Shown here piece by piece: positions 4,294-37,200 of a stretch of DNA of 64,000 nt. The DNA lies in NCBI RefSeq assembly GCF_964213995.1, contig NC_135809.1:108996001-109060000 (forward strand). The letters run 5' to 3'. The stretch's first letter is position 1, and each line of letters starts with the position of its first letter. The position numbers and the translations under genes were made by a program. The stretch is from Mustelus asterias. Its lineage: Eukaryota. A model generated the notes under the pieces. That model was not told the DNA's origin. It searched no databases and saw nothing but the letters and a program-made list of their open reading frames with translations.

Positions 4294-7200
4294 GTAAGTG
4301 TCTAAAAAAAACACAGCGGTACCTTTTTGCTAAATGATAACAAATCTATAATTAATGATTCTTTTCTCAGAGTCACTCTTGCCTATAACCCCATAACTTT
4401 GCCATAAACATGGAAGAAAGCTTATTTAGGGACATATTTCTGCACCACTTCCTGTGGAAGCTGCACGGCATAGCAGGGCCTTGCCAGTCAGAGCCTTCTA
4501 CTGCCTTCTCGGCCTTGCCCCTTGCCTGAGGTGTGATCCTCAGGTAAAATCACCCACCAGTCAGCTCTCCGCCTCAAAGGGGAGTGCAGCCTATGGTCAT
4601 ATGGGACTATGGTGATTTTAGTTTTACTGCTTAACCCCATTATACATGTGTAGTGGGAGGGTCACAAAATTTAAATATGCCCTGCCTGTGTGTTCATTGC
4701 TGTGGAGGTATCTCAGGTGCTTACATTCACTCTGAGGTTGAATGCTGACACATTGTCACACAGATCTGTGTTCAAGAGATTGCTGCTTCTGCATTTCCAT
4801 CAGCTTCCTTTATAAGAAACAATTTAAGAAAATATCTCATTTACATTGCTGAGGGCTTGATCAGACTCAATCTACATTTAGAGAACACAAACTGCATACA
4901 GCATGTCGTTTTTCCTCTTTTTATAGCGAGCAACAATATCTTGACCTGCTACTGGGGAAAGGAAGCCAAAATGATCAATGTTGGGAATTTCCAGATAAGG
5001 TTATGAACTTATGGGCCCAATTTTACCATCAGGTTGCACCCGTTTTCGGGCGCGAAAACTTGATAAAGTCGGGTGAGAGGCGAGTAGCGTGATCCGCACC
5101 GGCCTCCGTGCCAGTTCCCCCTTTACCAAGGCCCGAAAATGGACGCGATCGCAACGGCCATTGAAATGCGTTTGCATGCATTTAAATTGACTTAATGGGC
5201 TGCATGCCCAACTTTACCAGAATGTCCCCCTTTACCACCACGTTTGCCCATCCAGAATCGGCAAGAAACAGACATGCTCCATAGAAGTCCGATTCGGGCG
5301 CTCCAGTTAGTGAGGAGGTAGGTGCCTAGCATCCGACGGCTCTCTGCATGAGATCGGCGTGGGGAGGGAGGGGCGGTGAAGGGGGGTCAGCTGCCTTTTT
5401 GCCTGAGATCAATGGTGGGGGAAAAGGAGGGGTGTCCACTGCCACTCTGCCTGAGATCGGTGCGGGGGGGGCCAACGATCGGTCTGGGTGGCGGGGGGGT
5501 TGGGTGGCAGATTAGGGGGTCAATAATGTTGTGGGGGTGGGGCAATGTCTGTTGGGGCCAGGAGGTGGCATTATGCGGCCCCAGAGGGATGTGGCAGGGG
5601 AGCAGCATTCTACCCTTTTTTTGAGCATGCGCAGTTGGAGGCACCGATCAGAGCTGCAGCGTTTCGGGTGCGTTGAGCTCCGCCCACAGGCTTGTGCAGC
5701 ACGATTCGGACTTGCTGATATTTTTGCAGGCAGGGTGCCTATGGGGGCGCCTGAGAACAGGTCTAAAAGTCGGATCTGAAACACTCCCAGTTTCAAGTCC
5801 GCCCAGCATTTAGAATCAAAATGGTAAAATAGGACCCTAAACGTGGTAAAGTCGGGCATGGGGCCAGTAATGCGATCCGTGCCCGGGTCCGCGCAGATGG
5901 CCTCTTTATCAAGACCCGGGAATGGCCGAGATCCGATTTGCGCCCAAAACGGGCGCAACGGCGATTTAAATGTATTTGCATGCATTTAAATTGAATTAAT
6001 GAACTGCCCATCCAAATTTATCAGAATTTCCCCCTTTAACCACCGCATTCGCCAATCCGGAATCAGACCGAAATGGACATGATAAATAAGAGTCTGTTTT
6101 GGACGCTCCAGCTGCTGAAGAGGTGTGTTCAGAGCTTCCAATGGCTCTTTGATTCAGATCGGTGGTGAGGAGGGGTAGGCGGGTCAGATCATTCTTTGGT
6201 GAGGGGGTGGGGAGGGAGGAGGAGGCGGGTCAGATGTACCTCTGCGGGGTGGGGGGGGGTGGAGGGGAGGGAGGCCAGATCATTCTCTTGGGGGGGGGGG
6301 GGGGTTAAGGGAGGAGGGAGGCCAGATCATTGTCTGGTGGGGGGGGTGGGGGCAGGTAAGATGTATCTCTGGTGGGCGGGGGAGGCCCGATCGCTCACTG
6401 GTGTCGGGGGGAGGGAGGGAAGGCCAGATGGATCTCTGGTGAACAAGGGGGGCGGGGGGGGGGGGGGGGGGGCCGCGATCAGTCTGGGTAGCGGGGGTGG
6501 GTGGATAAGGGGACAATTATGTTGTGGGGGTGGGGTGATGTCTGTGGGGGCCATTGCTCCTGCTTTTCGCTCCCGGGCCGCTTTCTCCGCTTTTTGCGGC
6601 CCAGGAGCGATCTGACACAGGTGCGCTTTTTCAAATTTTTTTCCAACTGCGTATGCGCAGTTCAGAGCTCCGATCGTTTCAGACGTGCTAAGCCCCACCC
6701 ACAGTGTGATTCAGAATCCCGATTTTTTTTTTTCAGGCTAAGTGCGTATGGGGACACCTGAGAGCAGATTTCCAAGTCAGATCTGAATTGCGCCCAGATT
6801 CAGCACTTAGAATGAAAATGGTAAAATCGGGCCCTATGTCTCTGTTTCCTCTGATTTGAAAATAAAGCCTGAAAAAAGACTAAGCTTCCAATTCGTAAAG
6901 TTCCATTTCAAACCAGAAGTCGTTTTGTTTGTTGGAAATTCAATGACTTGGTGGCACCACAAAGTTGGATTCAAACTTGAAAGGCTCCATTTGAGAATGC
7001 AGAAAGGGAAAGGAAAGGATTTGGTTCAAATCTTAAGATTTGCATTTTCTGGTTTTGTAGTAACTTACCTGTAAAGCACTACCTCGCCAGCAGATTGCTG
7101 TTGTGTAATTAACCTACACAATCTGCACTAAATTTATATTTGCTTTCCACACAGCACGACCAAATGTTCACTTATCCACACAATCCATTACAATTCAGAG

Positions 7201-10200
7201 TGGTTCAGAGGGCTCTGTGAGATGTGACGTTACTGGATTTTATCCTCAACAGTTGGACATCAGCTGGATCAAGATATCAAAGTGGAGAACAGAAAATGTT
7301 TCATCAGAAAGTTACACAAAACATTTTGTCAACAATAGTGACAAAACGTTTAATGTTTCCAGTCAGCTGAGGATTCGAGCAACAATGAAAGATGATGGTG
7401 ATAAGTACCGATGTGTGGTGGCGCATTCAACATTTCCTGATGGTTTCACAATTGAATCTGTGCTCAGTGTGACAAGTGAGTTCTGCTATGGAAGAAATGT
7501 GAGTGCGAGGGGAGGGTGGAAGGAAGGAGAGGAGGAGGGGTGAGTGAGTGAAGGAGGGGTGGGTGAAAGGAGGGAAGGAAATAGGCATGGTGGATACATG
7601 ACAGAAAGGGTGATAAGGGAATGAGAAAGAGAGAGTGGCTAGTATTTCATTAATCCTTTAATATTTTAATGACTAATTCATTAGTTATCCATTACAGAGA
7701 GGCAATGGCCGAGTGGTATTATCGCTAGACTATTCATCCAGAAACTCAGCTAATATTCTGGGGACCCGGGTTCAAATCCAGCCATGGCAGATGGAATTAG
7801 AATTTTAAAAATATCTGGAATTAAGAATCTACTGATGACCACGTAACCATTGTCAACTGTCGGAAAAACCAAACTGGTTCACTAATGTTCTCAGGGAAGG
7901 AAAACTGCCAGCTTTACCTGTTCTGGCCTCATATGACTCCAGAGCCACAGCAATGTGATTGACTCTCAAACTGCCCTCAGGTAACTAGGGATGGGCAATA
8001 AATGTTGGAAAGCCAGCGAAGCCCATGTTCCATGAATGAATAAAAAAAGTGCTGGACAATAAGGACAGAGTGGAAGTGTGGCAGAGAATTAAAATGATAG
8101 GTGAGTCAGGGTCATACTTGTGGATTTTTTTACAATGTTCTTAAGACCTGTGGATGTTATTTATTGCCCATCCTGAATAGCCCTTGAGAAGGGCACTTTC
8201 ATCAACTGCTGCAGTCCATCTGGTACAGCTACCCCCACAGTGCACTTGGGTGGGAAGCTCCAGGATTTTATGACTGTGAACGAAAAGCAATGTATTTATG
8301 AGTCAGGATACTGTGTGAGTTGGAGAGGAGTTTGCAGGTGGTGATGTTCTCTTGTGTCTGCTGTCTTTGTTCTTCTAGATGGTAGAGGTAATGGTCTGGA
8401 AGGTGTCGCTAAATGATCCTTGCTGCTGTGAATCCTGTGGATGGTACACAATGTTGCCATTGTGTGGATTGGTGGTTGGAGTGAAAATCTCAGGTGGTGG
8501 ATGTTGCCAATCACTCAGGCTGCATTGTCCTAGATGGTATTTAGGGCATCACGGTGGCACAATGGTTAACACTGCTGACTCACAGCACCAGGAACACAGA
8601 TTTGATTTCGGCTTTGGGTGACTGTGGAGTTTGTATGTTCTCCCTGTGTCTGCGTGGGTTTCCTTCAGGTCTCTGGTTTCCTTACACAGTCCAAAGATGT
8701 GCAGGGTAGGTGGAATGGCCATACTAAATTGCCCTTAGTGTCCATTGATGTGGAGGTTAGGGGGATTAGCCATGGTAAATGTGCATGTATACGGGATAGG
8801 CCGGAGGAGAGGGCCTGGATAAGATGCTCTTGCAGAGAGTCGGTGCAGATTCAATGGACCAAATGTCCTCTTTCTGCACTGTAGGGTTTCTATGGTTCTG
8901 TGGTGTCAAGCTTGTTGAGTGTTGTTGGAAATGCAATCTCCAGGCAAGTATTTGGCAACTCCCTGGCAACGTTCCAGCGAGTATCTCATCACACTCTTGA
9001 CTTGTGCCTTTTACAAGATGGACAGGAGGTGTGTTGCTTGCCACAGATTTGTCACGATTAGATTCTCTCTTGTTGGAATTGGTTATAGCCTGTCACGTGT
9101 GACAAAAATGTTACTTGCCACTTATCAGTCCAATCCTCAATTTTGTCCATGCCTCTTTTCACACTGATGTGGACTGCTTCATTATCATAATTAATGGAAT
9201 GGAATTGTTTTGCAATCATCAGTGAATTTGTTTGTTTCTGATGTTATAATGAATGGAAAATCATTGATGAAGGTATTGAAGATGGTTGGGCCTTGGGCAC
9301 TACCCACAGGAACACCTGCATTGATGGCATGGGATTGGAATGATTGACTTCCAAAAACCATAACAATCATTCTTTATGTTGGATATGACCAGTGAGAGTT
9401 TACCCCCAATCTTCATTGACTTGATTTTCTGAGGACTTCTTGATGCCACACAGTCAGATAATCCAAAGTATTCAGTAACCCCACCTCCACCACCTTCTGA
9501 GGCAGAGAGTTCCAAAGCCACACAATCCTTTGACAGAAAACAATTCTCATCTTTGTCCCAAAATGGAAACCCCTAACTTTAATAAGCAGTTCTTGCTAGT
9601 TCTGGACTCATCCACAAGAGGAAACATCCTTTCCATGTGCACCTTGTCAAGCCCATTCAGGGTCTTTAATATTTCAATCAAGTCACCCCTTACTCTTCTA
9701 AACTCCAGTGGAAATAAGCCCAATCTGTCTAACTTTTTCTCATTAGACAACATGCTCATTCCAGGCATCAATCAGGTATTTCTTTCGATACCAACCAAGT
9801 AAACGAACTCAAACTAACTTAGGGACAAAGTAAAAGGGGCGGCTCCCCAAAGGGAAGGGGGAACAGCCTGAACCAAAATCAAAGTCGAAAGGAAACTTAA
9901 AACGTCAAACCAAAAGGTGATTATCGGGGTCGATAATACACCCCAGCCCCTGTGATGCCCAATGGGCGCTGAAGGCGTTGACTGCGCCCATGGACACTGC
10001 ATGCTCCCTCTCCAGGGACACCTGGCCGCGAATGTAGCCGCGGTAGAGGGGCAGACAGTCAGGAGCATCAGTCAGATAAACATCATCTGAAACACCTCCA
10101 ACGCATTCACATCTTTCCTTAAATAAGGAGCCCAAAACTGCACAGTAATTGAGATGCGGAATGAGGTTTTCCCAGAAATTGGCAAAGGCCTTTAGCAGGC

Positions 10201-13200
10201 ATGTTTTAATGAGTTATCCTTATCCAATGGACATGCAGGTGTGTCTCCACCCACTCGTGCTGGCCATGAATGGAGAGGGATCAGACTTCATCAAGCTTAC
10301 AGCTTGAGGTTCCTTCTTGCTTCTGTTCTTTTCCTAAGTCTGTTCTTCAAAACTCCAAAATTTATCATTTTGAACTGATTAAAACACATGCATTTCTGCA
10401 CATAGGCACTGACCATAGGCATATCATCTAAACTGGTTTATTATCAGCTACCTGACCTTCAGACATTTCTCCTCCGCCTTTTTGACTCCATTTCGTATCT
10501 GGTTTCTGTCCATTTGATCAATTTGAATGAATCCGGTTGACTTTATCACCCTTGTAAAATCAAAGACATTTGTTCCAAATAAAGAGAGCAATCCATATAC
10601 TTAGTCTGGAGTTAAAAACCTTCTGTTCTGAAGTTAGCCATATTTCCCATTTGTCCTTTCTTTGCTTGGTCATTTTGCATTAGACAATAGCTCGCCAGCT
10701 ACAAACCTAGCTTAATTCATCAAGCTAGTGAGATCCTACTGCCATCTCACAATGGGTCCCATAATTTCTTGAATGACCCAAGAGATGCTGGAAATCTGTG
10801 GAGAGAGAAACAGAGTTAACATTTCTATTTTTATTTACAGATGTTGCCAGACCTGTTAAGTTTACCCAGCATTTTCTGTTTTATATCCTATGTACTATGT
10901 CCTTTGTACCTAGTCTGGGATGGTGATAGTGTGATCTGATTAAAGTACTATAAATTTCATTGTTTCTTCCTTGGATTTATGTTCTGCTGTTATGGCTGTG
11001 TATGAACTTTGTAGATCTCAGCTTTGAGTTTGCTGGGTTTGTTCACAATTGAGTCCATTCAGACTCTGCTCTCTTTCAGCTTCATCCTTTACTGTTTCAA
11101 CATTGTCCAAATAGAACATTTATATTTATTTTTCCTTCCTACACATCGCATGTCAACTGATTATTAGGTTAGTAGAGTCTGGATAACCCTCAGGCTTGCC
11201 CCTAATGATCAATTGCATGCTTTTACAAACCATTAAGTTTAGATTGATGGGCCTGCAGTTTTCTATTATTGTTTCGTGACTCTTTTTGGTTATTGCAGGC
11301 ACCAGATTATTTTGTTTCAATCTTCTGATAACCTCTCTAATTCTATGAACTCCATCATGATGATTACAATTATCTCACAAAACTGTTCCCTAATCTCCCT
11401 GAGCACTCTGAGATAAATATCAGTTATCTTTTTTGACTTATTTACTTTAAGCACTTTTAACATTTCTAAGTCATCCATCTGATTTTTACCTCCTTCATTT
11501 GAAATGTCCATCTTTGGGGACTGCAAGTTGCTCATGCCTTCCCTTGTGAATACTTGAAGGAAGTAGTGTTGTATAGTTTACATTTTAATTCTCCTGTTTA
11601 GTCTTTATTCGAATTGTCTTCTGTGCTCTGACCATTGTCCTGAGGAACTGAGTGTTAAAACCAAATCTGCTTGAGCACCCTGTTAAATATTATAGCTTTC
11701 CTAATGCTTTAAATCAATTAAAATATCTATTTGTTTTTATGCTCTTAAACTCTACAGAATCAAGTAATCGTTCACATGTTATTGCAGCCATAATCGGTGT
11801 TATGGTATTATGTATAACACTTGCCTTTGGGATTTTTATTTGGAGAAGGTGTTCAAAAGGTAAGACATTAGTTTAATCTTATAAGTGAAAAAAATTGTAA
11901 CCAATTTAGGCTATGGAGTTGGAAGCAATGTCAGCATTTATTGTCCATCCCTCCTTGCCTCATAAAGATGCTCGTGAACCTTCATTTTGAACTCCTGAAG
12001 TCATCTGATGATGAAGCTTCCCATAATGCTCTTGGTTAGGGTGCTCTAAAATTTTAGCCGATGATGATAAAGAAACACAACATCATAATCACGTCATGAT
12101 TGGTGATTTAGGAGGGAACATGAAGATGTGAGTTTATGGATTTGGAAGATATTGCTGAAGACACCATTGCGAGTTGCGACAGTTCAAATTCTAGATAGTA
12201 AACAGGACTGCTGGTAGAGTGGGTGGATCTTTAAACGTTGTTATCATGGTGGTTATGGTCAGAATGATTGAGGAGCAGGCTGTGTGGTTGCATTAATTTT
12301 TCAAAAGCTCAATCCTCCAGTTATATTTGAGGAGGCATAAACTTGGCATTTAAGCCAATTTCTCCTTTTATCACGGCTTGCTTTATTTCAACAATACAGT
12401 TTAAAATTCTTCAACATTATTTAAATGAATGAATGTATATAAACCAGGTATGGCTCAGTCAGTGGCAGCACTATCTCTATGGCAGAAAGTTGAGGTTTCA
12501 AGCAGCACTCCAGAGACTTGATTGGAAAATCAAGTCCTGATGTTGTGCCCAATGTTTATGCCTCAATTAACATCACTTAAAAACATAGACTGTGATTTTC
12601 CTTTTGGAGAGCTGCATCGCTCAACTGTGTTTGAGGTTCAGTGGGAAGGGCCTGTATGCCGACTGGAAATTTTCATTTGGCATCAGCAGAATGGCTTTAA
12701 TAGGCCCCTAAATGGGCTTAACAGGCTATCCATCCACCACTTGTAAGAGTATGATGGCAGGCTGATTGCTAGTGGGAAATAATTGTCTGTCTTCCTCTGA
12801 TCCCATCTCCAAACCTAATTAAAAACTAGTAACCTACAATTGGCTAATTCTGGAATGACCACATGATGCATTGCATTTAAAGAAATTATGTTAACAGTGC
12901 TTTTGGGTTTATTGTGATTTATGGATTTATTGTGTTCACATCAAGTGAGGTATTATTGTTTGTAAGAAGATTTTCCCATTAATATGACAATATGCAGCCA
13001 GGACATGCTTTCAATATATCTTTCAGCCATTACAAATCGACACCACTACTCTCCATGCCCCTCCTCTGCCATCCCTTCCCTCTAATCCCATTTCCATCTC
13101 ATGCATTTTCATTCTTCTAGGTGAATTTTTCTATATCATAGTCTTTCTCCCATGCCATTTCCATCCTCTGCAACTCGATTCCTTGCATGCCATCCCCTTC

Positions 13201-16200
13201 TTCCCAAGTCTCCAATTCTATTGTCATGCATCTTTCCGATGCCATCCCCTCTCTACCATGGCATTGTCATCCCATTCCATTCTGTCCTTTCCATGTCACC
13301 ACTCCAGTGCCATCACCTTCCTCCCACTTCTCCTATGCCATCCCCATCCCAGGCATTCCATCTTTCCAATTCCTTCCCCTTGCAATTCCCTCGCACCCAA
13401 GGCACCCTCCTCCCATCTCAAGCCATTTCATCCTTTCCATGTCACAGCTTCAATGCTATCCTCTCCCTCTCATTCCTCCCATGCCATCCTGATCCCAAGC
13501 CATTTCATTCATTTCATGCCATCCTCTCATCACCCCTCCAAGCCAAACCCATCCCATGGATTTATATCAGTATATTTGATGTAGTGTAAATGGAGGAATA
13601 TGAATGAAGACTACTTGCAAATTCAATTTTGGTATTTATTAATTAAGGACACTTTCTATTTCAAAATTTTATTATATGAGGAAATGCTGAAGATCAAGGA
13701 GAAATTGATTGGAGTTTAAGTGGCCAGGCAACTAGCATGAAAATACCAATCTTTTCAAACATGTGCCTTTTGACTGTTTCTTAATTTTTACTTCAGTAAT
13801 TATAAAGGTGCAAGTCTATTTAAAAAATGTTTATTTGTAGGGTGCATTTCTCTTTTAACATAATCAAAAAAAGTGACTGGTTGAAGTTTATGAATATTTC
13901 CAAAGGCAGGGAAGTGCTGTGGTTTGGGGAAAAGTTCCAGAGAACAAGGATGCATCAAAGTTTAACACAACCAATGTTGGTATTTAGTAAAGTCTGAGCA
14001 GTGGTGACCATTTACTGATTTCTTTGGATTGATCACCACAATGAAAAGCTTGGACTCAGGGTACAATTCTCCCATCTGGGACTAAGTCCCATGATGGGGG
14101 CAGGGATGGGGAGTATCTGCCATTGCAGAGGCCAACAGAAAGCAGAAAGGACGGGAGGAGGATATTTTGGGTGAGAAGGGGGTGGCATGGGGGATGGGAT
14201 CAGAAAGATGGGTGGCAGTGGCATTGGAGAAATGGGAAAGAATAAAAGAAAAAAATGCATTTTCTTCAGGGTTACTTTTCAGTTTGTCAGTCAGATGTTT
14301 CCAATTTCTACAGTTAAGACATTAATTCCTAAAACGAAAAGTTGTATTGTAAAACATATAAATTTTGAATGAGATATTCACAACAAAGTATTAGGTTGAA
14401 CACTTAAATCTTCATTATTTTATGTAATGTTTAATTTCTCATATATTTATATTCCATCCAGGCCAAAATCAAGATGATGAAGAAAAGCAATCATTTCTGA
14501 AGAAAAAGTCACCTGACTCTGGAACAGCATTGTGTGCTGGGCCAGGTACACCAGAAACTGAAACTAGTAAGCCATTAACCATTTGTACCATCCATTATCT
14601 TTCATTTATCCACCTGAATCCCTATTTATCTGTTATTCAGGTAAAACTTAAGTTTACATTTGAAGTTTCAATTCTCCAGGTTCAATGACATAAGGGCACT
14701 CAAATTTAATACACAGGGCCACACAAATTCGGAGCAGGAGTAGGTCACTCGGCCCTTTGAACCTGCTCCAGCGTTTGATAAAATCATGGCTGATCTGATT
14801 GTAACCTCAACTCCACATTCCTGCCTGCCCCTGTTAACCTTTCACCCCTTGCTTATCAGGAATCTATTTAACTCGGCCTTACAAATATTCAAAGACTGTT
14901 TCCACCATCTTTTCAGGAAGGGACTTCCAAAGACCCATGATTCTTTCAGAGAAAACATTTCTCCTCAGTTCTGTCTTAAATGGGCCACACTTTATTTTTA
15001 AACAGTGAGCCAGACCAATCAGACTAAAGTTATCGAGGTGTTGCTGCTGCGAAACATATTTAATGTCAGTGTCATGTTGGGAGAAATAGCAACCCACAGG
15101 TTTCCATCTCAGTGATTTGGAATCTCACCACTGACGATTATAAGAATGTAATCAGATGGCTCTTATTTTGTGTCTTCTGATACACTGGGTATGAGTTCTA
15201 ATTTTTAGTTTTTATAATCATGTCAGGATTTTACCAGTTCTCTGATTTGGAACAAATCTTATGTTTCTGCTCCATAAATGACGATCAACAAAACTATCAA
15301 ATTCCGATGAAAAACTTCAAAAAAGGTCATGGCAGAAATCTCTTGTTTAGAAATCCCAGATAGCTGTGGCACGGCCTCTTGATAAATTTGATTATTGAAG
15401 TGGTTATATGTCTGTTTAAGAAGTGCCACAACGCCTGGATTTTTCTGGCATACCGTGGATCCCAAGATCAGCACCAAATGTGTGAGCCCAAGTTGGTGGG
15501 AGGCAGGGCAGCAGAGACTATTTTACTAGCCTCAGTTCCTGATCTGCTGGCTCAACTCACAGCTACTATTACAAGTGACCAGTACTGAGGCTGCAAGAGG
15601 AAAGAAAAGGCAACTTCATGTTGAACTGCCCTCACAGTAGTGGTGATTTGATTTGATTTGATTTATTATTGTCACATGTATTAGTATACAGTGAAAAGTA
15701 TTGTTTGTTGCGTGCTATACAGACAAAGCACCCCGTACATAGAGAAGGAAAGAAGAGGGTGGAGAATGTAGTGTTACAGTCATAGCTAGAGTGTAGAGAA
15801 AGATCAACTTAATATGAGTTAGGTCCATTCAAAAGTGTGATGGCAGCAAGGAAGCAGCTGTTCCTGAGTCGGTTGGTATGTGACCTCAGACTTCTGTATC
15901 GTTTTCCCGATGGACGAAGATGGAAGAGAGTAGGTCCGGCGTCCCTAGGGTCCTTGATTATGCTGCTTGCTTTTCTGAGGCAGCGGGAAGTATACACAGC
16001 GTCAAATGATGGGAGACTGGTTTGCGTGATGGACTGGGCTTTGTTCAAGACCTTTTGTAGTTTCTTGTGGTCTCGGATAGAGCAGGAGCCATACCAAGTT
16101 GTGATACAACCGGGAACTTTTATTTCTATGTCAGGACCAGGAGAGCAGGCCCTGTGATTGGAAGGAATATGGCAGCCTCAGGGTGGCAAAGTGGCCATTG

Positions 16201-19200: not shown

Positions 19201-22200
19201 CCCACACTCTGCACTGCAGAGTGCACTAGCGCGATTCATTTCAAAAACCAGTGGGCGGGGAGTATTCCCGCTGGAGAGGCCGGCAGCATAACGCTGAATG
19301 GGTCACTGTGCATGCGCCAATTTGTCAGTGCTGCAACCCTGCAATGCCAGCCATGCGACATCCCCCCCACCACTGGTAGCCTTAATGTCCCGCCTCCCCC
19401 ATCACCCACGTCCCCGGCAGTCCCAAAAGCCCACACCCCACGAATGCTGCCCCCTCCTCCCCCCCCCTCCCCGACTCCCCCTTGTGCATGAATTAGCGCA
19501 AAAGGCTAGAAATTAGATACAACAAGTAATCTGGAAAGCTAATAGAATGTTATTGCTTATTGCACGTGGGTAGGTGGGAATTTGGAGTTGTGTTTAGTCA
19601 GATCATTCATAAACTTACCGAATGTTAGAGCATGCTTAAAGGGCTGAGTGGTCCACAATGAAGAAAAAAATGTGTGCAAACTTATCATTTATTCACTCAT
19701 GAGCTGAGGCAACCTGTGGCAACATTGACACATCATACATTTATTGGCATCTTAAATTGCTTTGAGGTGGTGAGAATGATCCTTCAAAAGCACTGCAGTC
19801 TGTGTAGTGAAGGTACATTCACACTTTCCTACTTATCTCTGCATCATCAGAAAACTTAATGACAAATTTATATGAATTATAAAACGTTGAGGCAACAACA
19901 TTGGGGGCGGGGAATGGGGGGTGGGGGGGCATTGCTCGAGGTCTTCATCCCAGTGATGGGAAGTCAACGGGCAAATATTTCCAAGTCAGCATTGTGTAAA
20001 TCTTGGAGCAGCAGTTCCTGTGATGATGTTCCCATGCACCTGCTGTCCTAGTTCTTCTAAATGGCCATTGTTGCACATTTAACAGCAATTGAGAATGAAT
20101 TAAAAATAGTCCAATTGTTCATTATTGTTTCCATCAATTCAGTTTGTAATTTGTATCTAAACAAGAATTTTTAGGACAGAATTGATCAAATAAGTTTCTG
20201 TCACATGAATGCCTTTTGTTTTATAGTTGCGTTAACAATCGGTGATATGAAGAAACCGGACAAAATTATAGCTGGTGAGAAAACCAATCTGAGTTGGGAC
20301 GTTTCTGTGTTCAGTCCAAGGGAGGTGACAAATTTTGTCACATCTGTGAAGAGGAAAGGGGAGCAGGAAGCAAAGAAGTTATTTCACTGGGAAATCCCAC
20401 TGGACAAATTCAAAGGACCATTTGCAGTAACTCTCCCTCTCAACAATGTATCAGATTTATGTGAGAAAGATGATTCCTTCAGTGCTGAGATACCAGAATT
20501 ACAACGCGAATCTGATGGTTCTTTCTGCATTCCGTGTTCCATTACATTGTGTCCTGATGTATCTAAGGATGATGGTGCTGAGTTAATCTTTGAAATTAAA
20601 CAGGAAGGTACTGAGGAACCTTGGACTAAAAGCACAGTACTGAAGGTCACTGCAGGTAATTTCGGTACTTTGTACATCATACAAACTCTTGCAAACATGA
20701 TTGTGAAATCTTAAGCGGGAGATCATGACACCAACATAAAAACAGTTTTTGATGTTAACCCTTTCAATATGATGATGAAAATTAATAAGTCCTGCATAGA
20801 TTTGATGATTGGAACCATAGTCTAATGATTTGGTCAGAAGTTACTTGCTGTTTTCAATCAGGGTTCATTGGCCTTTGGCAGCTTTACATTCAAGCTCTGT
20901 GGGATAATGTGCAGGATCTCAAATATGTCCAGTGTGGTATGCACAGTAACTATTACTGACCCCAGGCACCCCAGATCTCTTCCACCTTCTTTTGTTGGCG
21001 AAAAGATACTAATCTCTGAGATCACGTACCAACCAACTCAAGAACAGCTTCTTTCCTGCTGCCATCAGACTTTTGAATGGACCTACCATATATTAAGTTG
21101 ATCTCTCTCTAAACCCTATGATTGTAACACTATTGGTGGGATTTTCTGCTCTTGCTCGCCCTGAAACCGGAAAATCCCACCCAAAGTCAATGAACGTTTC
21201 CATGGTCCACCCCTCACCCACTCCGATTCCCAAGGTGGGCAGGATGGTAAAATTCTCCCATATATTCTGCACCCTCTCCTTTCCTTAGAATCATAGAATC
21301 ATACAGAGCAGGAGAGGCCCTTCGTCCCTTCGAGTCCGCACCGACACATTAGAAACACCTGAACTCCCTCCTAATGCCATCTGCCAGCACTTGGCCCATA
21401 GCCCTGAATGTTATGATGTGCCAAATGCTCATCCAGATACTTTTTAAAGGATGTGAGGCAACCCGCCTCTACCACTCTCCCAGGCAGCGCATTCCAGACC
21501 ATCACCATCTTCTGGGTAAAAGTTTTTCTTTACAACCCCCCTAAACCTATGCCCCCTGGCGACTGACCCTTTAACTAAGGGAAACAGCTGCTTCTTATCC
21601 GATCTGTTCATGTCTCTCATAATCTTGTATACCTCAGTCAGGTCACCCCTCAGTCTTCTCTGCTCCAATGAAAACAACCCAAGCCAACCCAACCTCTCTT
21701 CATAACCTAAAATGCTCCATCCCAGGCAGCATCCTGGTGAATCACCTCTGCCCCACTTCCAGTGCAATCACATCCTTCCAATAATGTGGTGACCAGAACT
21801 GCATGCAGTATTCTAGCTGTGGCTAAAGTTTTATACAGCTCCAACATCACTTCCTTGGTTTTGTAATCTATGCATCGATTGATAAAGGCAAGTGTCCCAT
21901 ATGCCTTTTTCATTACCCTATCAACATGCCCTTCCGCCTTCAGAGATCTGTGGACAAACACACCAAGTCCCTTTGTCCCACAGAACTTCCTACCATTCAC
22001 TGAGTACTTCTTTGTCAAGTTACTCCTTCCTAAGTGTATCACCTCACACTTTTCAGAGTTAAATTTCATCTGCCACTTATCTGCCCATTTGACCATTCTG
22101 TCTATATATTCTTGTAGCCCAAGACACTCCGCCTCACTGTTAACCACCCGTCCAATCTTTGTGTCATCTGCAAATTTACTAATCTTACCACCGCCTCCCG

Positions 22201-25200
22201 CCCCCCGACATAGTCATCAATGTAATTTATATAAATGACGAATAATGGGGGCCTAACACAGTTCCCTGTGGTACGTCACTGGACACTGCCTTCCAGTCAC
22301 TAAAGTAGCCTTCTGTCATCATCTTCTGTCTCCTTCAACAGAGCCAATTTTGAATCCACTCATGTGGGACCTTGTCAAGGGCTTTGCTGAAATCCATACT
22401 AACTACGTCGACTGCACTACCCTCGTCTATACACCTGGTGACCTCCTCACAAAACTCAATCAAATTTGTTTGGCATTACCTCCATCTGACGAAGCCGTGC
22501 TGACTATCCCTAATCAAGCTTCACCTCTCCAAGTGGAGATAGATGCTCTCCTTCAGAAATTTCTCTCATGGTTTCCCTACCACTGACATGGTCCTTCACT
22601 ATGTATGGTATGCTTTGTCTGTATAGCACGCAAGAAACAATACTTTTCACTGTATGCTAATACATGTGACAATAATAAATCAAATCAGAATCAAATCCGT
22701 GACTGTGAATTTGGAACCTGTCTTGAAGAAGCATTATTTGACTAAATGAAACAAAATATAACTGATTGATGGTGTGGAATGTAGGAGAGTGTTCCAGTCA
22801 GCAAAATACTCACTTTGTCATCGGTAAACAGATTTATTTCAGGTTGTCACCCTTAACACGCTAATGGGAGCAAGAGATGATGGAAGCAATAAATGTAATG
22901 GAATGCCTTATGTTCTATTGAAAGAGGGGGAAACAATTGAGCTTCAAATATTCTTAGAAATATTAGCTACATCATTCAGTTATCTTGTCTGCCAGTCAGA
23001 AGGAAATATGTTGATGTTCTGCTCCATGATTTTGAGTAATTGTCTTGACTGACACCTCATATATATTTGATGCAACAATGCAATAACACAGTCATCCTCA
23101 TATTTGTACAAGAAAAAGTTATTTTTTTCAAATATTTGATTTAATTTTGATTTGATTTATTATTGTGACATATATTAACATACAGTGAAAAGTATTATTT
23201 CTTGCACGCTATGCAAACAAAGCATACCGTTCATGGAGAAGGAAACGGGAGAGTGCAGAATGTAATGTTACAGTCACAGCTAGGGTGTAGAGAAAGATCA
23301 ACTTAGTGCAAGGTAGGTTCATTCAAAAGTCTGACCACAGCAGGGAAGAAGCTGTTCTTGAGTCGGTTGGTATGTGACCTCAGACTTGAAATCAAATTTG
23401 ATTCCATTTTTCAAATTATGTAGCCCTTATGTATTTCAGCCTTTATGTATCCTGAAATTAGTTACATCGTTCAAAATCTTCCAGTCAGAAGGAAGTGTGC
23501 CGATGTTTCAGTTCAAGACATTGAACAAAAACCTTAACTGAAACCATGTGCATATTTGATGGAATGAGTTTTGTTAAATACAGAAATTGATTGCAGTTTC
23601 TGATTCAAGCGTTGTATCCTGACATTGAAGTAGGTTACTTTTACAACAAATACGATCCAGTAAATAAAATTGCTCATACAATTTGCACACAATTTTATCA
23701 CAAAACTGAGCATTTTTGCCAAATCTCTTCTAAATTCATGTTATCCAAAAAAACATCAGAGTACCTTCTGCTCCATTATATTACCAGTTTACACTATCAT
23801 ATGTTTTGTTTCATCTCACTTCAACAGGCACCTCTTCAAATTGCTCAAGCAATACTCCAAGTGAAATGGGAGTTCAACAGGACGGGAATGAAGGAACAGG
23901 GAAACCGGACACTGCAGGTGGGTTGATGATCTGGTCCACGATTTTCAGCAAATCTCTTGACTGAAACCTAGTACAGATTTGATGGAATGATGCAGTCACA
24001 AAGTCATCCTCACATTTATATTTAACTAAAGTTCCTTTTGTTAAATAAAGAAATTGATTGAATTTCCTGATTCGAATACCACTGATGTATCCTGACATTG
24101 AATTATGTTACTTTTTCGATGAATAAAATCGAGGGAAGAAGATTGCTTGTAAATGCTTTGGCAAATTGTATAACGAAACTGAACAATCCTGGCAATTCTA
24201 ATTGAAACTAATTGTCTGAGAGATATTCACAGCAGAAAGAAAAAACAACTAATAGTCCATTCTGTCTGTGAGAAAAAGTGTTGCATAAAAATTGGGATGC
24301 TTAATGAAGTACTTATCTGAGAAATAGGGATATTTATCCACAGATGAAAAGCATTGAGCTCAGCTTAATTCACATTTATTATTTTCTTATTCCCAAAACA
24401 ATCATCACTGTACTTTCTGCTCATTTGTGCTAATGGTTTACACTCTCATGTCATCTCGTGTTCAACTGGAATTGACAGATGCCTCGTCAAATGGACCAAA
24501 CAATACTCTGAGTGAAACGGGCAAACAAAAGTTTGAGAATGAAGGAACAACGAATCCAGACAATGCAGGTGGGTTGATGTTCCTGTCCAGGATTTTTTGC
24601 AAATATCTTGACTGAAACCTGGTGTATATTTGATGGAAATGTACAACTCACAGTCATCATCACATTTGTATAAGATAATGCTGTGTTTCTTAAGTATAGA
24701 AATTGATTGAATTTTCTGATTCAAATGCCACTGATGTATCCTGACATTGATGTATCTTACTTTTACAACGAATAAGACCAAGGAAAAAAATTGCTCGGAA
24801 ACTTCACGGCAAATTGAATAACAACACTGAGCAATTCTGCCAATATTATTTCAAACTGAGGTATCTACGGGGGCAGTAAGAAAAAATGACTGACAGTTCA
24901 TACTCAGTGTATGAGAAGATATTGCATAAAAGTTGCCCCTTGGTATCCAGAGATGTGTAGGTTCTGTAGATCAACCATGGTAAATATGCGGGGTTACAGG
25001 AATAAGTTTTAGGGTGGAGGGGAGGGCCTGGGTAAGATGATCTTTCGGAGAGTCAGTACAGACTTAATGGGCCGAATGGCCTCCTTCTACACTTTGGGGA
25101 TTCTGTAGTTATCAATGGGGAATTAGGGTCTTGATGAAGCAGTCTTCAGAGAAATGTGTAGCGCATGTGTAGTGGTCCCGATCTGTCAGACTCCCCGTTT

Positions 25201-28200
25201 TCTGGCCAGCCCAGGACCCCTGCAGTGCTGACCTCCAGCGCCCTCCCCACGGCCCGATCACGGCCCCCACAACAATTCCCAGGCCAACTCTGATTCCCCA
25301 CTGTCCCAAAGCACCCGGATGCACAGCCCACCAGCCCCCCCAGCAGTGGCGATCCCACCACTCCCCCTCCACCCAACAGACCCACCTCCGCCCGCTGATA
25401 CCCCTCCAGAGGCAGGCTCCCCCCCGCCCCGCCCTCTGGCAGAGCACCACCCCCCAGCCCGCCCCAATTGCTGCCCTCCCTCCATCCCAGACTGATCCTT
25501 TCTGCAGAGTGGCAGCGGGAACCCCACCCCCACCGATTGCCTCTCAGCCCACCCACAGTAGGCCACGCCTCTTGGCACTGCCCAATGCCCGGTGGGCAGT
25601 GCCAAGGTGCCCCATGGCCATGGACTTTGTCCCTTGGGCAGTGCCAAGGGGCACCGGCTGGCACTGCCAAGGTGCCCATGCCTAGGGGCACTAATCCCCG
25701 CCGCCACTCCTTCATTTCGGCAGGGTCTCCGGCTAGTTCCCCGAACATAGGGAGCTAGTGTAAACCCCGCCAGAATAAAGTACTCCTGGCGGGGTGGGAG
25801 ATTCAATTGGGACCTGAAAGTTCCCAATAATGAACTGCTAAACATATTTAAAATACATTTAAGACAGATTCAAATTACTTACCCGCCTTCCTGCCGGTTT
25901 CCAATGTGGTCTGACCGGTAACTGTTCGCCGGCTCTGGGAGATGCGCAATGCGTTCCCAGCGCATGCGCAAATCCCAGTACAAGGCCGGCGACACGCATC
26001 TCCCACTGCGACCAGCCAGAAAGGTTGCGGGTCACGATGGGAGAATCACCACCGGGAGTTCCACAGAATCAGAATGAAGCAAATGCTTTGACTGAAACCA
26101 GAATATGTTTGATGAAATGCTGCAACACACAGGCCAGAATTTTACCTGCACGCCCGTCCCAATTCTGGAGGCGGGCAATGCTTGGAGAACGGCATTCTCC
26201 ATTGGCCTCGACCGGGATCATATGAAACTCGGGTGGACGTGCTGGTAAAATTCTGCCCACACTCATCAACATATTTGTATCAGATAAAGCAGCTTTTGTT
26301 ATATGTAGAAATTGATTGAATTTCCTGATTCGAGTACCACTGAGGTATCCTGATATTGAAGTATGTTACTTCTCGATGAATGAAATTGAGGGGAAACAAT
26401 TGCCTGTAAATGCGTGTGTAAAACGAAACTGAACAGTCCTGCCAATCCTAATTGAAACTAATTGTCTGAGAGATATTCACAGCAGAAAGATAAAACAACT
26501 AATAGTCCATTCTGTCTGTGAGTAAATGTGTTGCATAGAAATTGGGATGCTTAATGAAGTACTTATCTGAGAAATAGGGATATTTATCCATGGATTAAAA
26601 GCATTGAGCTCAGCTTAATTCACATTTATTATTTTCTTATTCCCAAAACAATCATCACTGTAATTTCTGCTCATTTGTGCTAATGGTTTACACACTCATA
26701 TAATCTCGTGTTCAACTAGAATTGACAGATGCCTCGTCAAACGGTCCAAACGACACTCCGAGTGAAATGGGTGAACAAAAGTTTGGGAATGAAGGAACAA
26801 CAAATCCGGATACTACAGGTGGGTTGATGTTCCCGTCTCGGATTTTTTGCCAATGTCTTGACTGAAACCTAGTACATATTTGATGGAAATGTACAACTCA
26901 CAGTCATCATCACATTTGTATAAGATAATGCTGCATTTCTTAAGTATAGAAATTGATTGAATTTTCTGATTTGAATGCCACTGATGTATCCTGACATTGA
27001 AGTATCTTACTTTTACAACGAATAAGACGAAGGAAAAAGATTGCTCGAAACTTCTCGGCAAATTGTATAACAACACTGAGCAATTCTGCCAATACTAATT
27101 CAAACTAATTGCATGAGATTTATACGGGAGCAGTAAGAAAAAATGACTGACAATTCATACTCAGTGTAAGAGAAAATATTGCATAAAAGTTGCCTCTTAG
27201 TGTTCAGAGATGTGTAGGTTAGATAGATTAACCATGGTAAATATACTGGGGTTACAGGAATAATGTCTACGATGGAGTGGAGGGCCTGGGTTTCGGAGAG
27301 TCAGTGCAGACTTAATGGGCCGAATGGCCTCCTTCTACACTATACTTATCTATGGAGAATTAGGGTCCTGATGAAGCACCCTTCAGAGAAATAGGAATGT
27401 CTATCGGTGGATAAAAAACATTGAGCTGAGCTAAATTCACGTCTATTGTTTGCAAATTGGCCAAAACAATTTTCTCTGTCCTCCCTGCTCCATTATAGAA
27501 TGAGTTCACACTGCCCTGTAATTTTGTGTTCATTTAGAAACAACAAATGCCTCTTCAGGCAGTCCAAGCAGTTCTCAGTTTGAAACAGCAGTTCCACAGA
27601 ATCAAAAGGAAGTAACAATAAATCCGGATGCTGAAGGTGGGTTTATGTTCCCGTCCAGGAATTTGAGCAAATGTTTTGACTGAAACCAGTACATATTTGA
27701 TGAAATGCTGCAACACACAATCATCAACATATTTGTATCAGATAAAGCAGCTTTTGTTAAGTATAGAAATTGATTGAATTTTCTGATTCGAACATCAGGC
27801 AGTACTCCAATTGAAATGGGGGCCGCGATTCTCCCAAAAATGCTGAATTGGTGGGAAAACTGTTCTAAATCCCGACTGTTTCGTCAGTTCAGTTTCTCAC
27901 CCGAATCTCTGCACTCTGTGCACTGCCGAGGTCCCAGTTGTGATTATCATTAAAAAACTGGGGGGGCCTATTCACGCTGGAGTCTGACAGTTCTGGAACT
28001 CTGCGCATGTGTAGTGGTCCCGATCTGTCAGACTCCCCATTTGCTGGCCAGCCCGATCGTTGGCCAGCCCGGGACCCCTGCAGGGCTGACCTCCAGCGCC
28101 CCCCCCACGGCCCGATCATGGCCCCCACAACAATTCCCAGGCCAACTCTGATCCCCCACTGTCCCAAAGCACCCGGATGCACAGCCCACCAGCCCCCCCC

Positions 28201-31200
28201 AGCAGTGGCGATCCCACCACTCCCCCTCCACCCAGCAGACCCACCCCCGCCCGCTGATACCCCTCCAGAGGCAGGCTCCCCCCCCCGCCCCGCCCTCTGG
28301 CAGAGCACCACCCCCCAGCCCGCCCCAATCGCTGCCCTCCCTCCATCCCAGACTGATCCTTTCTGCAGAGTGGCAGCGGGAACCCCACCCCCACCGATTG
28401 CCTCTCAGCCCACCCACAGTAGGCCACGCCTCTTGGCACTGCCCAGTGCCCGGTGGGCAGTGCCAAGGTGCCCCATGGCCATGGACTTTGTCCCTTGGGC
28501 AGTGCCAAGGGGCACCGGCTGGCACTGCCAAGGTGCCCATGCCCGGGGCACTAATCCCCGCCGCCACTCCTTCATTTCGGCGGGGTCTCCGGCTAGTTCC
28601 CCGAACATAGAGAGCTAGTGTAAACCCCGCCAGAATAAAGTACTCCTGGCGGGGTGGGAGATTCAATTGGGCCCTGAAAAATCCCGATAATGAACTGCTA
28701 AACATATTTAAAATACGTTTAAAACAGATTCAAATTACTTACCCGCCTTCCAGCTGGTTTCCAACGTGGTCTGACCGGTAACTGTTCGCCGGCTCTGGGA
28801 GATGCGCAATGCGTTCCCGGCGCATGCGCAAATCCCGGTACAAGGCCGGAGACACGCATCTCCCACTGCGACCAGCCAGAAAGGTTGCGGGTCACGATGG
28901 GAGAATCACCACCGGGAGTTCCACAGAATCAGAATAAAGCAAATGCTTTGACTAAAACCAGAATATGTTTGACGAAATGCTGCAACACACAGGCCAGAAT
29001 TTTACCTGCACGCCCGCCCCGATTCTGGAGGCGGGCAATGCTTGGAGAACGGCATTCTCCATTGGCCTCGGCCGGGATCATATGAAACTCGGGTGGACGT
29101 GCTGGTAAAATGCTGCCCACACTCATCAACATATTTGTATCAGATAAAGCAGCTTTTGTTATATGTAGAAATTGATTGAATTTCCTGATTCGAGTACCAC
29201 TGAGGTATCCTGATATTGAAGTATGTTACTTCTCGATGAATGAAATTGAGGGGAAACAATCGCCTGTAAATGCGTGTGCATAACGAAACTGAACATTCCT
29301 GCCAATCCTAATTGAAACTAATTGTCTGAGAGATATTCACAGCAGAAAGATAAAACAACTAATAGTCCATTCTGTCTGTGAGTAAATGTGTTGCATAGAA
29401 ATTGGGATGCTTAATGAAGTACTTATCTGAGAAATAGGGATATTTATCCATGGATTAAAAGCATTGAGCTCAGCTTAATTCACATTTATTATTTTCTTAT
29501 TCCCAAAACAATCATCACTGTAATTTCTGCTCATTTGTGCTAATGGTTTACACTCTCATATAATCTCGTGTTCAACTAGAATTGACAGATGCCTCGTCAA
29601 ACGGTCCAAACGACACTCCGAGTGAAATGGGTGAACAAAAGTTTGGGAATGAAGGAACAACAAATCCGGATACTACAGGTGGGTTGATGTTCCCGTCGAG
29701 TATTTTTTGCCAATGTCTTGACTGAAACCTAGTACATATTTGATGGAAAGGTACAACACACAGTCATCATCACATTTGTATAAGATAATGCTGCATTTCC
29801 AAAGTATAGAAATTGATTGAATTTTCTGATTTGAATGCCACTGATGTATCCTGACATTGATGTATCTTACTTTTACAACGAATAAGACGAAGGAAAAAAA
29901 TTGCTCGAACCTTCTCGGCAAATTGTATAACAACACTGAGCAATTCTGCCAATACGAATTCAAACTAATTGTATGAGATTTATACGGGAGCAGTAAGAAA
30001 AAATGACAGACAATTCATACTCCGTTTAAGAGAAAATATTGCATAAAAGTTGCCTCTTCGTGTCCAGAGATGTGTAGGTTAGGTAGATTAACCATGGTAA
30101 ATATGCTGGGGTTACAGGAATAATTGAAATGGGGGCTGCGATTCTCCCAAAAATGCTGAATTGGCAGGAAAACTGTTCTAAATCTCGACTGTTTTGTCAA
30201 TTCAGCTTGTCACCCGAATCTCCGCACTCTGTGCACTGCAGAGGTCCTGTCGTAATTATCATTAAAAACCCAGACAGGGCCTATTCGCGTGGGAGTTTGA
30301 CAGTTCTGGAACTCTGCGCATGTGCAGTGGTCCCAATCTGTCAGTCTCCCTGCTTGCTGGTCCACTCGATCCAGGCCAGCCCGGGACCCATGCAGTGCTG
30401 CTCCTCTCGACCCCCCACAATAATTCCCAGGCCAACCCTGACATCTTCCCCCCCCCACCTCACCCCCATGACCCGCAGCACCCCGATGCACAGTCCACCC
30501 ACCCCCCAGCAGTGATGATCCCATCACCCCCTCACCCCAGCAGAACCCCCCTGCTGATTCCCCCGGGGTCAGACATCCCCAGAGGCAGGGCTCCCCCCCC
30601 CCCTGCAGTCCACACCCTCCAGCTCGCCCCACTTGCTGCGCTCCCTCCATCCTGGAATAATCCTGTCTGCAGAGCGACAGCGGGACCCCCCACCCCCACC
30701 GATTGCCCCAGGCCCTGCTCACAGTAGGCCACGCCCCCTTGACACTGCCCAATACCCAGTGGGCAGTGCAAAGGAACCCCTTGGGCATGGGCACTTTGCC
30801 CCTTGGGCAATGCCAGGGGGCACTGGCTGGCACTGCCAGGGTCCCCATGCTCAGGGGGCATCACCACCCACTGCCTGACTCCCTGGGATGCCCTGATTGC
30901 ACCCCCTTTGTTCCGGCGGAGTCTCCCGCTAGTTCCCCGAACGTGGGGAGCTCGTGTAAACCCCGCCGGAATAAAGTACTCCTAGCGGGATGGGAGATTC
31001 AATTGGGACCTGAAAATTCCCGATAATGAACTGCTAAACATATTTAAAATACATTTCAAACAGATTCAAATTACATACCTGTCTTCCTGCCGGTTTCCAG
31101 TGTGGTCTGACCGGTGACTGTTTGCCGGCTTTGGGAGATGTGCATGTGTTCCCGGTGCATGCGCAAATCCCGGTACAAGGCCGGCGATGCGCATCTCCCA

Positions 31201-34200: not shown

Positions 34201-37200
34201 TTGCACCGTTCGTGACTCCACAGATTCTGAAGCAGCTCATGTCCAAATGCAGCAAGGCATGGACAATATTCAAGCATGGGCTGATAAGTAACATTTGTGC
34301 CACGTAAGTGCCAGGAAATGACTATCTCCAACAAGAGACGATCTAACCATCAGTCCTTGACATTTAATGGTGTACCATAGCTGAATCCCCCACTATCGAG
34401 AGCTTGGGGATTACCGTTGACCAGAAACTGAACTGGACTAGCCACATACTGAGGCTACCAGAACAGGTCAAAGGCTAGAAATCCTGTGGTGAGTAACTCA
34501 CCTCCTGACTTCCCCAAAATCTCCATCTACAAGGCAAAAGTTAAGAGTATACTGAAGTACTGTGCACTTGCTTGGATGAGTACAGCTCCAACAATACTGA
34601 AGAAGCTCGACATCATCCAGAACAAAGCAGCTCATTTGACTGACATCCATTCTACAAACATTCACGTCCTCCACCACTGACTTGCAGTGACAGCCTTGTG
34701 TATGTTGTGCCTGCCGCACAGTCTGTTTTAACCCTTATACGATGGACATAGAATTGCGAGTAGACTTCTTGTTAGTACAATAATATTTATTTAAAACACA
34801 CGATCAATAATCACCAACACAACCAACAATAAGTTATCTTACAGAAAATACTAAAGTTCAAGTCCAATACGAGACCTTGACTTAACTTTGCGTGACTGGC
34901 AGGTACCCAAGCAGATATTGGCCTTTATCTGTGTGCTGGTCTCTGTAGTCCTCTGCATAGTCTGGTCCTTTGGTCTGGTCTGGTCTGGTACTCTGGCTCT
35001 GGTCTTCCTTCCTTTTCGGGTGTGGTGGCACTCCTCGTGCTGATCATTGCTGGTGACGGTCACCATTGTCACTCGTTCGTGGGGTCAGAGAGAGAGACAG
35101 AGCTTCTGTTGTGCCGCAGCTTTTATCCATCCTTGGTTTCATGTCCTTTTTAGGTGGTCTCCTGATTCTTGTCAATCAATCAATCGATCGAGGCTTGATC
35201 ACCCTGATCGATAAGAGTCCAATCAGATGCTGCCATACTGATCTGTGGGTGTGTACCCAACGGCCATGCCTGTAGGTGCTGGAGGCACATCGGTCACATA
35301 CTTCCCTCCCAAATAAGGGGTTAAGGCTCCCCTTTGTCTGGTAAACAAGTATGTTTGACCAGAAAGTTTCCATTGTCTTTGGGATGGCCTATTTCCTGTG
35401 TATTCAGTCGTCTGAGTTGCAGCCTGTTTATCTCTGTCTTTTAAGCTGCAGTCTGCTGTTTCAATTATCCCAGCATGCTCTGTAAATCACCATTTTATGT
35501 GGCCCGTTTGGCCACATGTACCATCTGCAAGACTCCTGAGACAGCACTTTCCAAACCCATAGCCAGCACCATCTAGAATGACAAGGGTAATAGACACATA
35601 AGAATCAATGCTGGGGCACCAACTTTTTATAATTGATGTAAATGATTTGCATGAAGAGATCAAAAGTATTGTTGCTAACTTTGCTGATGATGTAGATATA
35701 AGTTGGAAAGTAAATTGGGAGGAGAATATAAGAAGGCTACAAAAGGATGCAGATATGTTAGATGTGTCGGCAACGATCTGGTAAATGGAGGAGATTATGG
35801 GAAAATGTGTAATTGTCCATTTTGGAAGGAATTGTAACAAGGAAGCACATTATTCAAATGTTAAGAGATTGCAAAGCTCTGGGATGCAGAGGGATCAGGG
35901 TGTCCTGGTGCATGAATTAGTGCAAAAGGTTAGAAATTAGGTACAACAAGTAATCAGGAAAGCAAATAGAACTTTATTGCTTATTGCAAGTGGGTAGGTG
36001 TGAATTTGGAGTTGAACTTAAAATCAGATCAGTCATGGACTTACTGAATGTTGGAGCAGGCTTGAAGGGCTGAGTGGCCCTCAATGAAGAAAAAAATAAG
36101 GTGTGCAAACTTGTCATTTATTCACTCATGGGCTGTGGCAACATTGACTCATCATTCATTTATTGGCATCTGAAAGCTTAATGACAATTTTTAATGAATT
36201 ATAAAAAGTTGAGGCACCAGTGACAGTGGGAAGTGGAGGGTAGGGGTGCGGGGGGCTCTAGGTTTTCATCCCAGTGATGGGAAGTCAACAGGCAAATATT
36301 TCCAAGTCAGCATTGTGTAAACCTTGGAGCAGCAGTAATGATGTTCCCATGCACCTGCTGTCCTAGTTCTTCTCAATGGTCATCGTTGCACATTTAACAG
36401 CAATTGAGAATGAATTAAAAAGTCTAATTGTTCATTATTCTTTCCATCAATTCAGTTTGTAATTTGTATCTAAACAAGAATGCTTAGAAGAGAATTGGAA
36501 CAAATACGTTTCTGTCACATGAATGCCTTTTGTTTTATAGTTGCGTTAATAATTGGTGATATGAAGAAACCAGACAAAATTATCGCTGGTGAGAAAACCA
36601 ATCTGAGTTGGAAAGTTTCTGTGTTCAGTCCAAGGGAGGTGAAGAATTTTGTCACATCTGTGAAGAGGAAAGGGGAGCAGGAAGCAAAGAAGTTATTTCA
36701 CTGGAAAATCCCACTGGACAAATTCACAGGACCATTTGGAGTAACTCTCCCTCTCAACAATGTATTACATTTATGTGAGAAGGATGATTCCTTCAGTGCT
36801 GAGACACCAGAATTACAACGCGAATCTGATGGTTCTTTCTGCATTCTGTGTTCCATTACATTGTGTCCTGATGTATCTAAGGATGATGGTGCTGAGTTAA
36901 TCTTTGAAGTTCAACAGGAAGGTACTGAGGAACCTTGGACTAAAAGCACAGTACTGAAGGTCACTGCAGGTAATTTCAGTATTTTGTACATCATGCAAAC
37001 TCTTGCAAGCATGATTATGAAATTCTTGAGTGGGAGATCATGACACCAACATAAAAGCAGTTTTTAATGTTATCCCCTTCAATATGATGATGAAAATTAG
37101 CAAGTCCTGCATAGTTTAGGTGATTGGAACCACAATTTAATGATTTGGTCAGACGTTACTCGCTGTTTTCAATCAGGGGTCATTGGCCTTTGGCTGCTTT

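Follow-up and report, generated by a model that had tools for sequence, protein, structure and literature searches.

A C1-derived immunoglobulin domain behind the membrane of B7-H6-like proteins, repeated in tandem in a shark and ray subfamily

In Mustelus asterias, an exon at positions 20227-20655 of the stretch of DNA analysed here (64,000 nucleotides of contig NC_135809.1, positions 108,996,001 to 109,060,000 of the forward strand; hereafter, the window) encodes a predicted immunoglobulin (Ig) domain that follows the transmembrane (TM) segment of a B7-H6-like protein and that is C1-derived and of the B7-H6 type, yet fails the strict features of the C1-set. The domain type is old: from chimaera to alligator, B7-H6-like proteins carry it as the first domain behind the membrane (IC1), and sharks and rays have built a subfamily that repeats IC1 only. 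C1-set domains are a hallmark of extracellular adaptive-immune molecules, and a position behind the membrane is unusual for a domain of the antibody type.

The exon, which, like all exons of the window listed below, lies on the plus strand, comprises 429 nt, or 143 codons, in phase 1, with a clean acceptor (...ttatag/TTGCG) and a clean donor (GCAG/gtaatt), and its domain is contained letter for letter in the public model P0008 (Mustelus asterias LOC144499271). On the window, P0008 runs in the order V, C1, TM, linker, domain, short Ser/Asn/Pro-rich linker exons and a second copy of the domain; the signal-peptide exon is located some 1 kb upstream of the window. Specifically, exon mapping places the V-set exon of the ectodomain at 3955-4293; it is followed by a canonical extracellular C1-set exon of 321 nt, or 107 codons, at 7155-7475, with both Cys and the Trp present (Pfam C1-set, E = 7.9e-14), by a TM exon of 102 nt, phase 1-1, at 11758-11859, after which come basic residues (WRRCSK), and by a juxtamembrane cytoplasmic linker exon at 14462-14566, which is joined to exon 20227-20655 in one contig of a relative. 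An earlier, sequence-only reading had set the 143 codons of the inner exon against the 107 codons of the C1 exon and had placed the domain after the TM segment; the sizes, all the motifs that it quoted and the post-TM position are confirmed by this layout.

The window contains three IC1-type copies, the second and third of which had escaped that reading. Copies 2 (36541-36969) and 3 (62535-62963) are each 92% identical to copy 1, and copy 3, which is missing from P0008, has an open frame and intact splice sites. Linker exons with approximate ends are found at 23827-23916 (Ser/Asn/Pro-rich, by tblastn), 24478-24567, 27537-27635 and 40051-40140; copies related to the linker at 24478-24567 also occur at 26728-26811 and 29588-29671 and are absent from the public gene model. 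P0008 ends shortly after 40140, and copy 3 together with the next linker exons (L009:2081-2809), which are likewise intact, may belong to a longer or alternative isoform. In the genome, at least 8 matches to the domain were found, all inside ~330 kb of one contig. The copies are embedded in recent, transposon-rich multi-kilobase duplications with 84-96% identity, and divergence is about 4% of sites among the exon copies, against 7-9% in the flanking intron. The dN/dS ratios among the three copies range from 0.7 to 1.2, being derived from very few changes (9-13.5 nonsynonymous and 2-5 synonymous), and strong constraint over so brief a period is not evident from them. An LTR-retroelement-like insertion (57271-62140) lies immediately upstream of copy 3, with direct repeats (57271-57553 and 61874-62140), an inverted segment (57552-58015) and a gag-protease frame (57815-59290; Pfam gag-asp_proteas), and fragments of a Harbinger-type transposase (Pfam DDE_Tnp_4) are seen at 40460-41317.

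The ectodomain identifies the gene as B7-H6-like. Its best match in the PDB is human B7-H6 (E = 2e-28), the next being CD276 (E = 1e-11), and a family profile likewise places B7-H6 first (4e-63 vs 8e-55); a signal peptide, an ectodomain of V and C1, and a single TM segment, all features of B7-H6 (NCR3LG1), are present. Synteny through the Kir-channel family is uninformative: human NCR3LG1 is located in the KCNJ11 neighbourhood, and on the shark contig a gene for some Kir channel lies ~11 Mb off. Like the shark protein, human B7-H6 (NCR3LG1; PDB 3PV6, 4ZSO) is, according to PMC6514059, a type I membrane protein with a V and C ectodomain, which serves as a ligand of NKp30, and PMC13262535 groups NCR3LG1 away from the other B7 ligands and closer to tapasin. 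The shark gene differs from its human counterpart in having C1-derived domains behind the membrane. The tail of human B7-H6 contains a retroviral Gag-like segment.

The gene is a member of a tandem cluster of five B7-H6-like genes in ~390 kb (G000:C9:108995006-109382422), of which two have IC1-only repeats (3 and 2 copies) and three have a string of different post-TM C1 domains with IC1 as the first; one gene is inverted. The non-mammalian multi-domain NCR3LG1-like models (for example, P0022, P0059, P0106 and P0145) have the same ectodomain as the window's gene and share with it the long IC1, including the insertion, Trp54 and the loss of the F-strand Cys. They differ in that their post-TM part strings together C1 domains of several kinds (IC1 to IC4-7), whereas the subfamily of the window's gene has IC1 only, connected by low-complexity linkers, and in that this shark and ray subfamily has additionally replaced the B-strand Cys by Trp (13/13 repeats).

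A profile search of 1.84 billion representatives retrieved 223 proteins, and the statements that follow refer to the best 150 listed, many of the weaker ones matching through repeated short C1 stretches. The names known for 30 of the 150 cover chimaera, sharks, rays, coelacanth, lungfish, reedfish, caecilian, newts, frogs, alligator and snake, with no teleost, bird or mammal among these 30; three clusters of multi-domain NCR3LG1-like proteins carry the name NCR3LG1 at NCBI. In a 71-row tree with a midpoint root, the window's three copies fall within a clade of 19 rows (support 100/100) that consists of IC1-only proteins of sharks and rays, and this clade is nested in one of 29 rows, which includes tandem repeats from chimaera and is separate from the gene's own extracellular C1. 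The number of domain copies per protein ranges from 1 to 8, the maximum being found in other sharks. A recent derivation of the inner domain from the C1 exon of the same gene, the origin that the sequence-only reading would suggest, is rejected by this tree, which has a midpoint root and several long branches: there, the domain clusters with the first inner domains that paralogs carry throughout the jawed vertebrates.

Is the inner domain indeed a C1 domain by descent? We consider an Ig fold of C1 descent virtually certain for the domain of exon 20227-20655 (hereafter, the query). In direct searches, the query had no Pfam C1-set match, no Pfam V-set match and, by phmmer, no Ig match in the PDB; a BLASTP comparison with the C1 exon of its own gene gave E = 0.15 and a profile-profile comparison with C1 gave a probability of 25% (E = 7.6e-4), neither of which is significant; a profile of 8 sequences reached a best E of 0.19 in the PDB, mostly with Ig constant regions; and a search of the ESM Atlas yielded nothing significant (best score 0.84). 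The similarity to C1 becomes significant only transitively, because the paralogous IC1 links the query to the C1-set: the query profile matches the paralog IC1 profile with a probability of 99.3%, the IC1 profile matches the profile of extracellular C1 with a probability of 94.7%, and one paralog IC1 (L008, P0017), which retains the B-strand Cys, the C-strand Trp and the conserved His, narrowly clears the cut-off of Pfam C1-set, with 21.1 bits against 21. Thus, the significant C1-set homology that had been anticipated holds through the paralogs and not in direct comparison, and the descent from a C1 domain of the B7-H6 type stands.

The predicted structures lead to the same conclusion. The AlphaFold2 model of the query, built with a 68-row alignment, is a beta sandwich (pLDDT 91.8, pTM 0.84), as had been expected from the sequence, in which strands C and C' form a long hairpin, the insert at ~56-83 is modelled with less certainty, and strands B and E span 19-27 and 99-107; a Pfam match to PH_29 (E = 0.063) was rejected given this Ig sandwich. 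In a VIA search with the query model, the best 50 matches listed are all Ig-fold chains, as judged by titles and ranges. V-set domains lead (Z 10.6, rmsd 2.7, 113 aligned), RAGE residues 120-231 are found at Z 9.6, and the C1 domain of B7-H6 comes at rank 49 (Z 9.4, rmsd 2.3, 98 aligned), so the query's own search does not single out C1, with V leading within about 1 Z. The model of the paralog IC1 (pLDDT 88.5), compared with 48,161 solved chains, has as its top match the C1 domain of human B7-H6 (Z 13.2, rmsd 1.6, 97 aligned), followed by the C1 domains of MHC class II and SIRP. A V-set origin, which the top Foldseek and VIA matches of the query might indicate, is considered unlikely on account of this C1-first ranking, and the V-likeness of the query is read as convergence through the insertion.

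With the C1-set (PF07654, represented here by Ig and TCR constant domains, MHC alpha3/beta2, tapasin and SIRP), the query shares the ABED/CFG sandwich, the F-x-P motif after strand B, the DG-x-F motif before strand E and the arrangement of one phase-1 exon per domain. In Ig and MHC molecules, C1 domains pair with one another via the ABED face. The query differs from the C1-set in that the disulfide Cys pair and the C-strand Trp are missing, Gln stands in place of the conserved His, the domain is longer by 34 residues and has a long C' strand, and it is placed behind the membrane. The canonical positions of the query are occupied by Trp23 in strand B, Thr38 at the site of the C-strand Trp and Phe121 in strand F, which bears out the three replacements reported earlier (B-strand Cys to Trp, F-strand Cys to Phe, and loss of the C-strand Trp). 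Counted from the B-strand position, the DG/DK motif is 73 residues away in the query vs 39 in the C1 exon, so that the insertion, previously put at about 35 residues, amounts to 34.

The proposal that the Cys pair was exchanged for bulky aromatics as an adaptation to the cytosol did not survive comparison across the family. Among 68 aligned domains, the pair of Trp and Phe occurs in only 2, both of them copies of this gene; the F-strand site is Val, Ile or Leu in 58 and Cys in 4, and the B-strand site is still Cys in 42 and Trp in 14, the latter residue being found in all 13 repeats of the shark subfamily. As judged from this alignment, Cys loss proceeded stepwise, with the F-strand Cys lost first and family-wide and the B-strand Cys replaced by Trp later, in the shark subfamily. 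The Trp of strand C' (Trp54), kept in 62/68 domains, likely replaces the lost C-strand Trp in packing. Positions conserved throughout the family mostly hold hydrophobic residues, Pro or Gly, and the polar His15, Arg42, Asp110 and Asp114 are retained in 50-58 of the 68 domains. The cysteines of strand E and its vicinity, previously regarded as new, are of two kinds: Cys103, in strand E, is conserved in 53/68 domains and, by this distribution, ancient, whereas Cys100 (7/68) and Cys108 (5/68) are variable.

The domain of the window's gene is, very probably, cytosolic. Among 111 proteins with a full-length domain match (isoforms included), the domain comes after the TM segment in 92 and before it in none, and 19 have no detected TM segment. 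N-glycan sequons show enrichment ahead of the TM segment in the 53 representatives with a single TM (162 vs 98+-10 in shuffled sequences) and none behind it (177 vs 166+-13), and in these proteins the average number of Lys/Arg residues is 2.9 after the TM segment vs 1.55 before it. Both Cys are present in 102/107 domains before the TM segment vs 181/321 after it (counted among 669 short-C1 profile matches in the 150 representatives, for single-TM proteins with both Cys columns filled), a difference for which P = 5e-16 overstates the case, the domains being related; it agrees with the earlier suggestion that the need for a disulfide is relaxed behind the membrane. Still, a post-TM position is not always a cytosolic one, because 181 of the 321 post-TM domains keep both Cys and some paralog models are devoid of the TM exon. 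In 3 of the 4 isoform pairs of multi-domain paralogs that were compared as gene models (P0018/P0221, P0019/P0222 and P0185/P0188), the difference is exactly the TM segment, and in three further multi-domain gene models (P0032, P0060 and P0079) the extracellular C1 leads straight into IC1; in such forms, the inner Ig domains would become part of a secreted product.

For the window's gene, the transcript data consist of contigs of a relative from runs guessed to be RNA. One such contig spans exactly 20227-20655, with 17 differences, and is joined to the linker exon, the short side being 28 letters; in another, the end of one copy is separated by 177 other letters from the beginning of the following copy. 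The splice from the TM exon to the linker was not seen in these contigs, which is uninformative because the TM exon is almost uncovered at 94% likeness. One contig (run X5) comprises the linker end, the domain, 87 other letters and the linker start (window 14459-14564 and 20227-20655), and represents either a tandem repeat unit that includes the linker 14462-14566 or a circular transcript. Logan contigs of 3.2-3.6 kb that represent the multi-domain type of paralog encode entire proteins of 944-958 residues, among them P0027, which has V, C1, TM and inner domains in a single frame.

Any functional interpretation has to accommodate the exon structure, the order behind the TM segment, the copy number, the family range and the loss of the F-strand Cys that are observed here, along with the composition of the tail, which in the window's protein contains no Tyr in 451 residues; an ITIM was found in none of the 13 tails of the subfamily. 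A folded domain that recurs along flexible acidic linkers is how avidity-based docking platforms are usually built, and we see an about even chance that the inner domains make up a tyrosine-free, multivalent cytosolic module for docking or clustering. The V domain would engage an NKp30-type receptor on lymphocytes, as assumed from human B7-H6, the repeated inner domains on their linkers would bind a cytosolic partner or each other, and ligand engagement would thereby be coupled to clustering, trafficking or reverse signalling, with no tyrosine motifs needed. Titin, obscurin and APEG-1 similarly employ disulfide-independent Ig folds, in tandem and inside the cell, for protein binding; unlike the window's protein, they are soluble muscle proteins with Ig domains of another set, the I-set, and are not tails of immune ligands.

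We rank docking or clustering, at this roughly even probability, ahead of the following possibilities, which are considered in order of decreasing probability. The cytosolic C1-derived repeats could act as decoys or sensors that bind pathogen proteins attacking B7-H6 or the C1 domains of the MHC type, host-pathogen conflict then driving both the copy number and the surface sequence. The dense cluster of five genes with lineage-specific repeat numbers, the dN/dS ratios near 1 and the down-regulation of human B7-H6 by herpesviruses (PMC6514059) are what such a conflict would predict; however, the pathogen partner is hypothetical, the substitution counts behind the ratios are tiny, and the near identity of the repeats within a species fits homogenisation rather than diversification, so we consider this reading unlikely. 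Still less probable is a purely structural role, the domain being a stable spacer or an element of retention or stability that was duplicated along with its segment, with little selection on copy number. The recent transposon-rich duplications, the variable copy number and the mostly hydrophobic, Pro or Gly nature of the conserved positions speak for it, and it is opposed by the persistence of the domain type from chimaera to reptiles, the retention of the four polar residues and the lower divergence of the exon copies as compared to the flanking intron.

We rate as slightly more doubtful yet the possibility of a dual topology, whereby the domain is of importance chiefly in secreted isoforms, which would arise by skipping of the in-frame TM exon, and the membrane form carries it as a passenger. 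The TM exon of the window's gene, with its 102 nt and phase 1-1, could be skipped in this manner, as it seems to be in the paralog models described above. Yet those isoforms are gene models, no TM-less form was found in the IC1-only subfamily (a TM segment is present in 14/16 proteins, and the other 2 are fragments without the N-terminal part), and neither the sequons, which are not enriched behind the TM segment, nor the F-strand Cys, kept in just 4/68 domains, point to a life outside the cytosol. Finally, the sequence-only reading had considered a redox, metal or acylation switch made of the cysteines, to which an ancestral pair of the B-strand and E-strand Cys could be added; both are present together in 34/68 domains, and positions 23 and 103 would lie side by side according to the strand ranges of the model. 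This we deem highly improbable: the two Cys show no covariation (Fisher P = 0.55), the B-strand site is Trp in the query, which makes the pair impossible there, and Cys100 and Cys108 vary even inside the shark subfamily (5/13 and 8/13).

The docking or clustering reading can be extended, tentatively and with rather less than even confidence, to a scenario in which the ancestral B7-H6 of jawed vertebrates was two-sided, displaying C1-set domains outside as well as behind the membrane. In sharks and rays, evolution would have turned the first inner domain into a disulfide-free, tandem cytosolic module, by which an NK-cell ligand would signal back into the cell that displays it, or sense pathogens within that cell, independently of tyrosines; some paralogs may switch between cytosol and secretion by skipping the TM exon. 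A C1-set lineage retained behind the membrane in groups as far apart as chimaeras and reptiles, and amplified in sharks, would revise the picture of the ancestral function of B7-H6. Furthermore, the family offers a natural series for the stepwise loss of the disulfide in an Ig constant domain, and its inner domain, being small and well modelled, makes it possible to test whether an NK-cell ligand signals in reverse.

In our literature searches, no account of cytoplasmic Ig domains in B7-H6-like proteins came up, although earlier work on B7-H6 evolution may mention them; the accessible parts of PMC12227049, PMC9321927, PMC10751288, PMC11599192 and PMC3964593 do not mention the architecture. The multi-domain architecture may already be in print, possibly in a paper that deals with intracellular Ig domains of B7-H6-like proteins, and this is less likely for the IC1-only tandem subfamily and the stepwise Cys loss.

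Two minor observations concern the wider family. In the cluster, an orphan V exon (G000:C9:109118121-109118486), which is 69% identical to the V exon of the window's gene and has no C1 exon found nearby, is possibly the relic of a sixth gene. Among the retrieved proteins, P0035, P0036, P0043 and P0045 are 1,700-2,150 residues long and contain 15-19 matched stretches each; P0035 comes from a frog, and proteins of this type suggest that amphibians possess very long C1 arrays.
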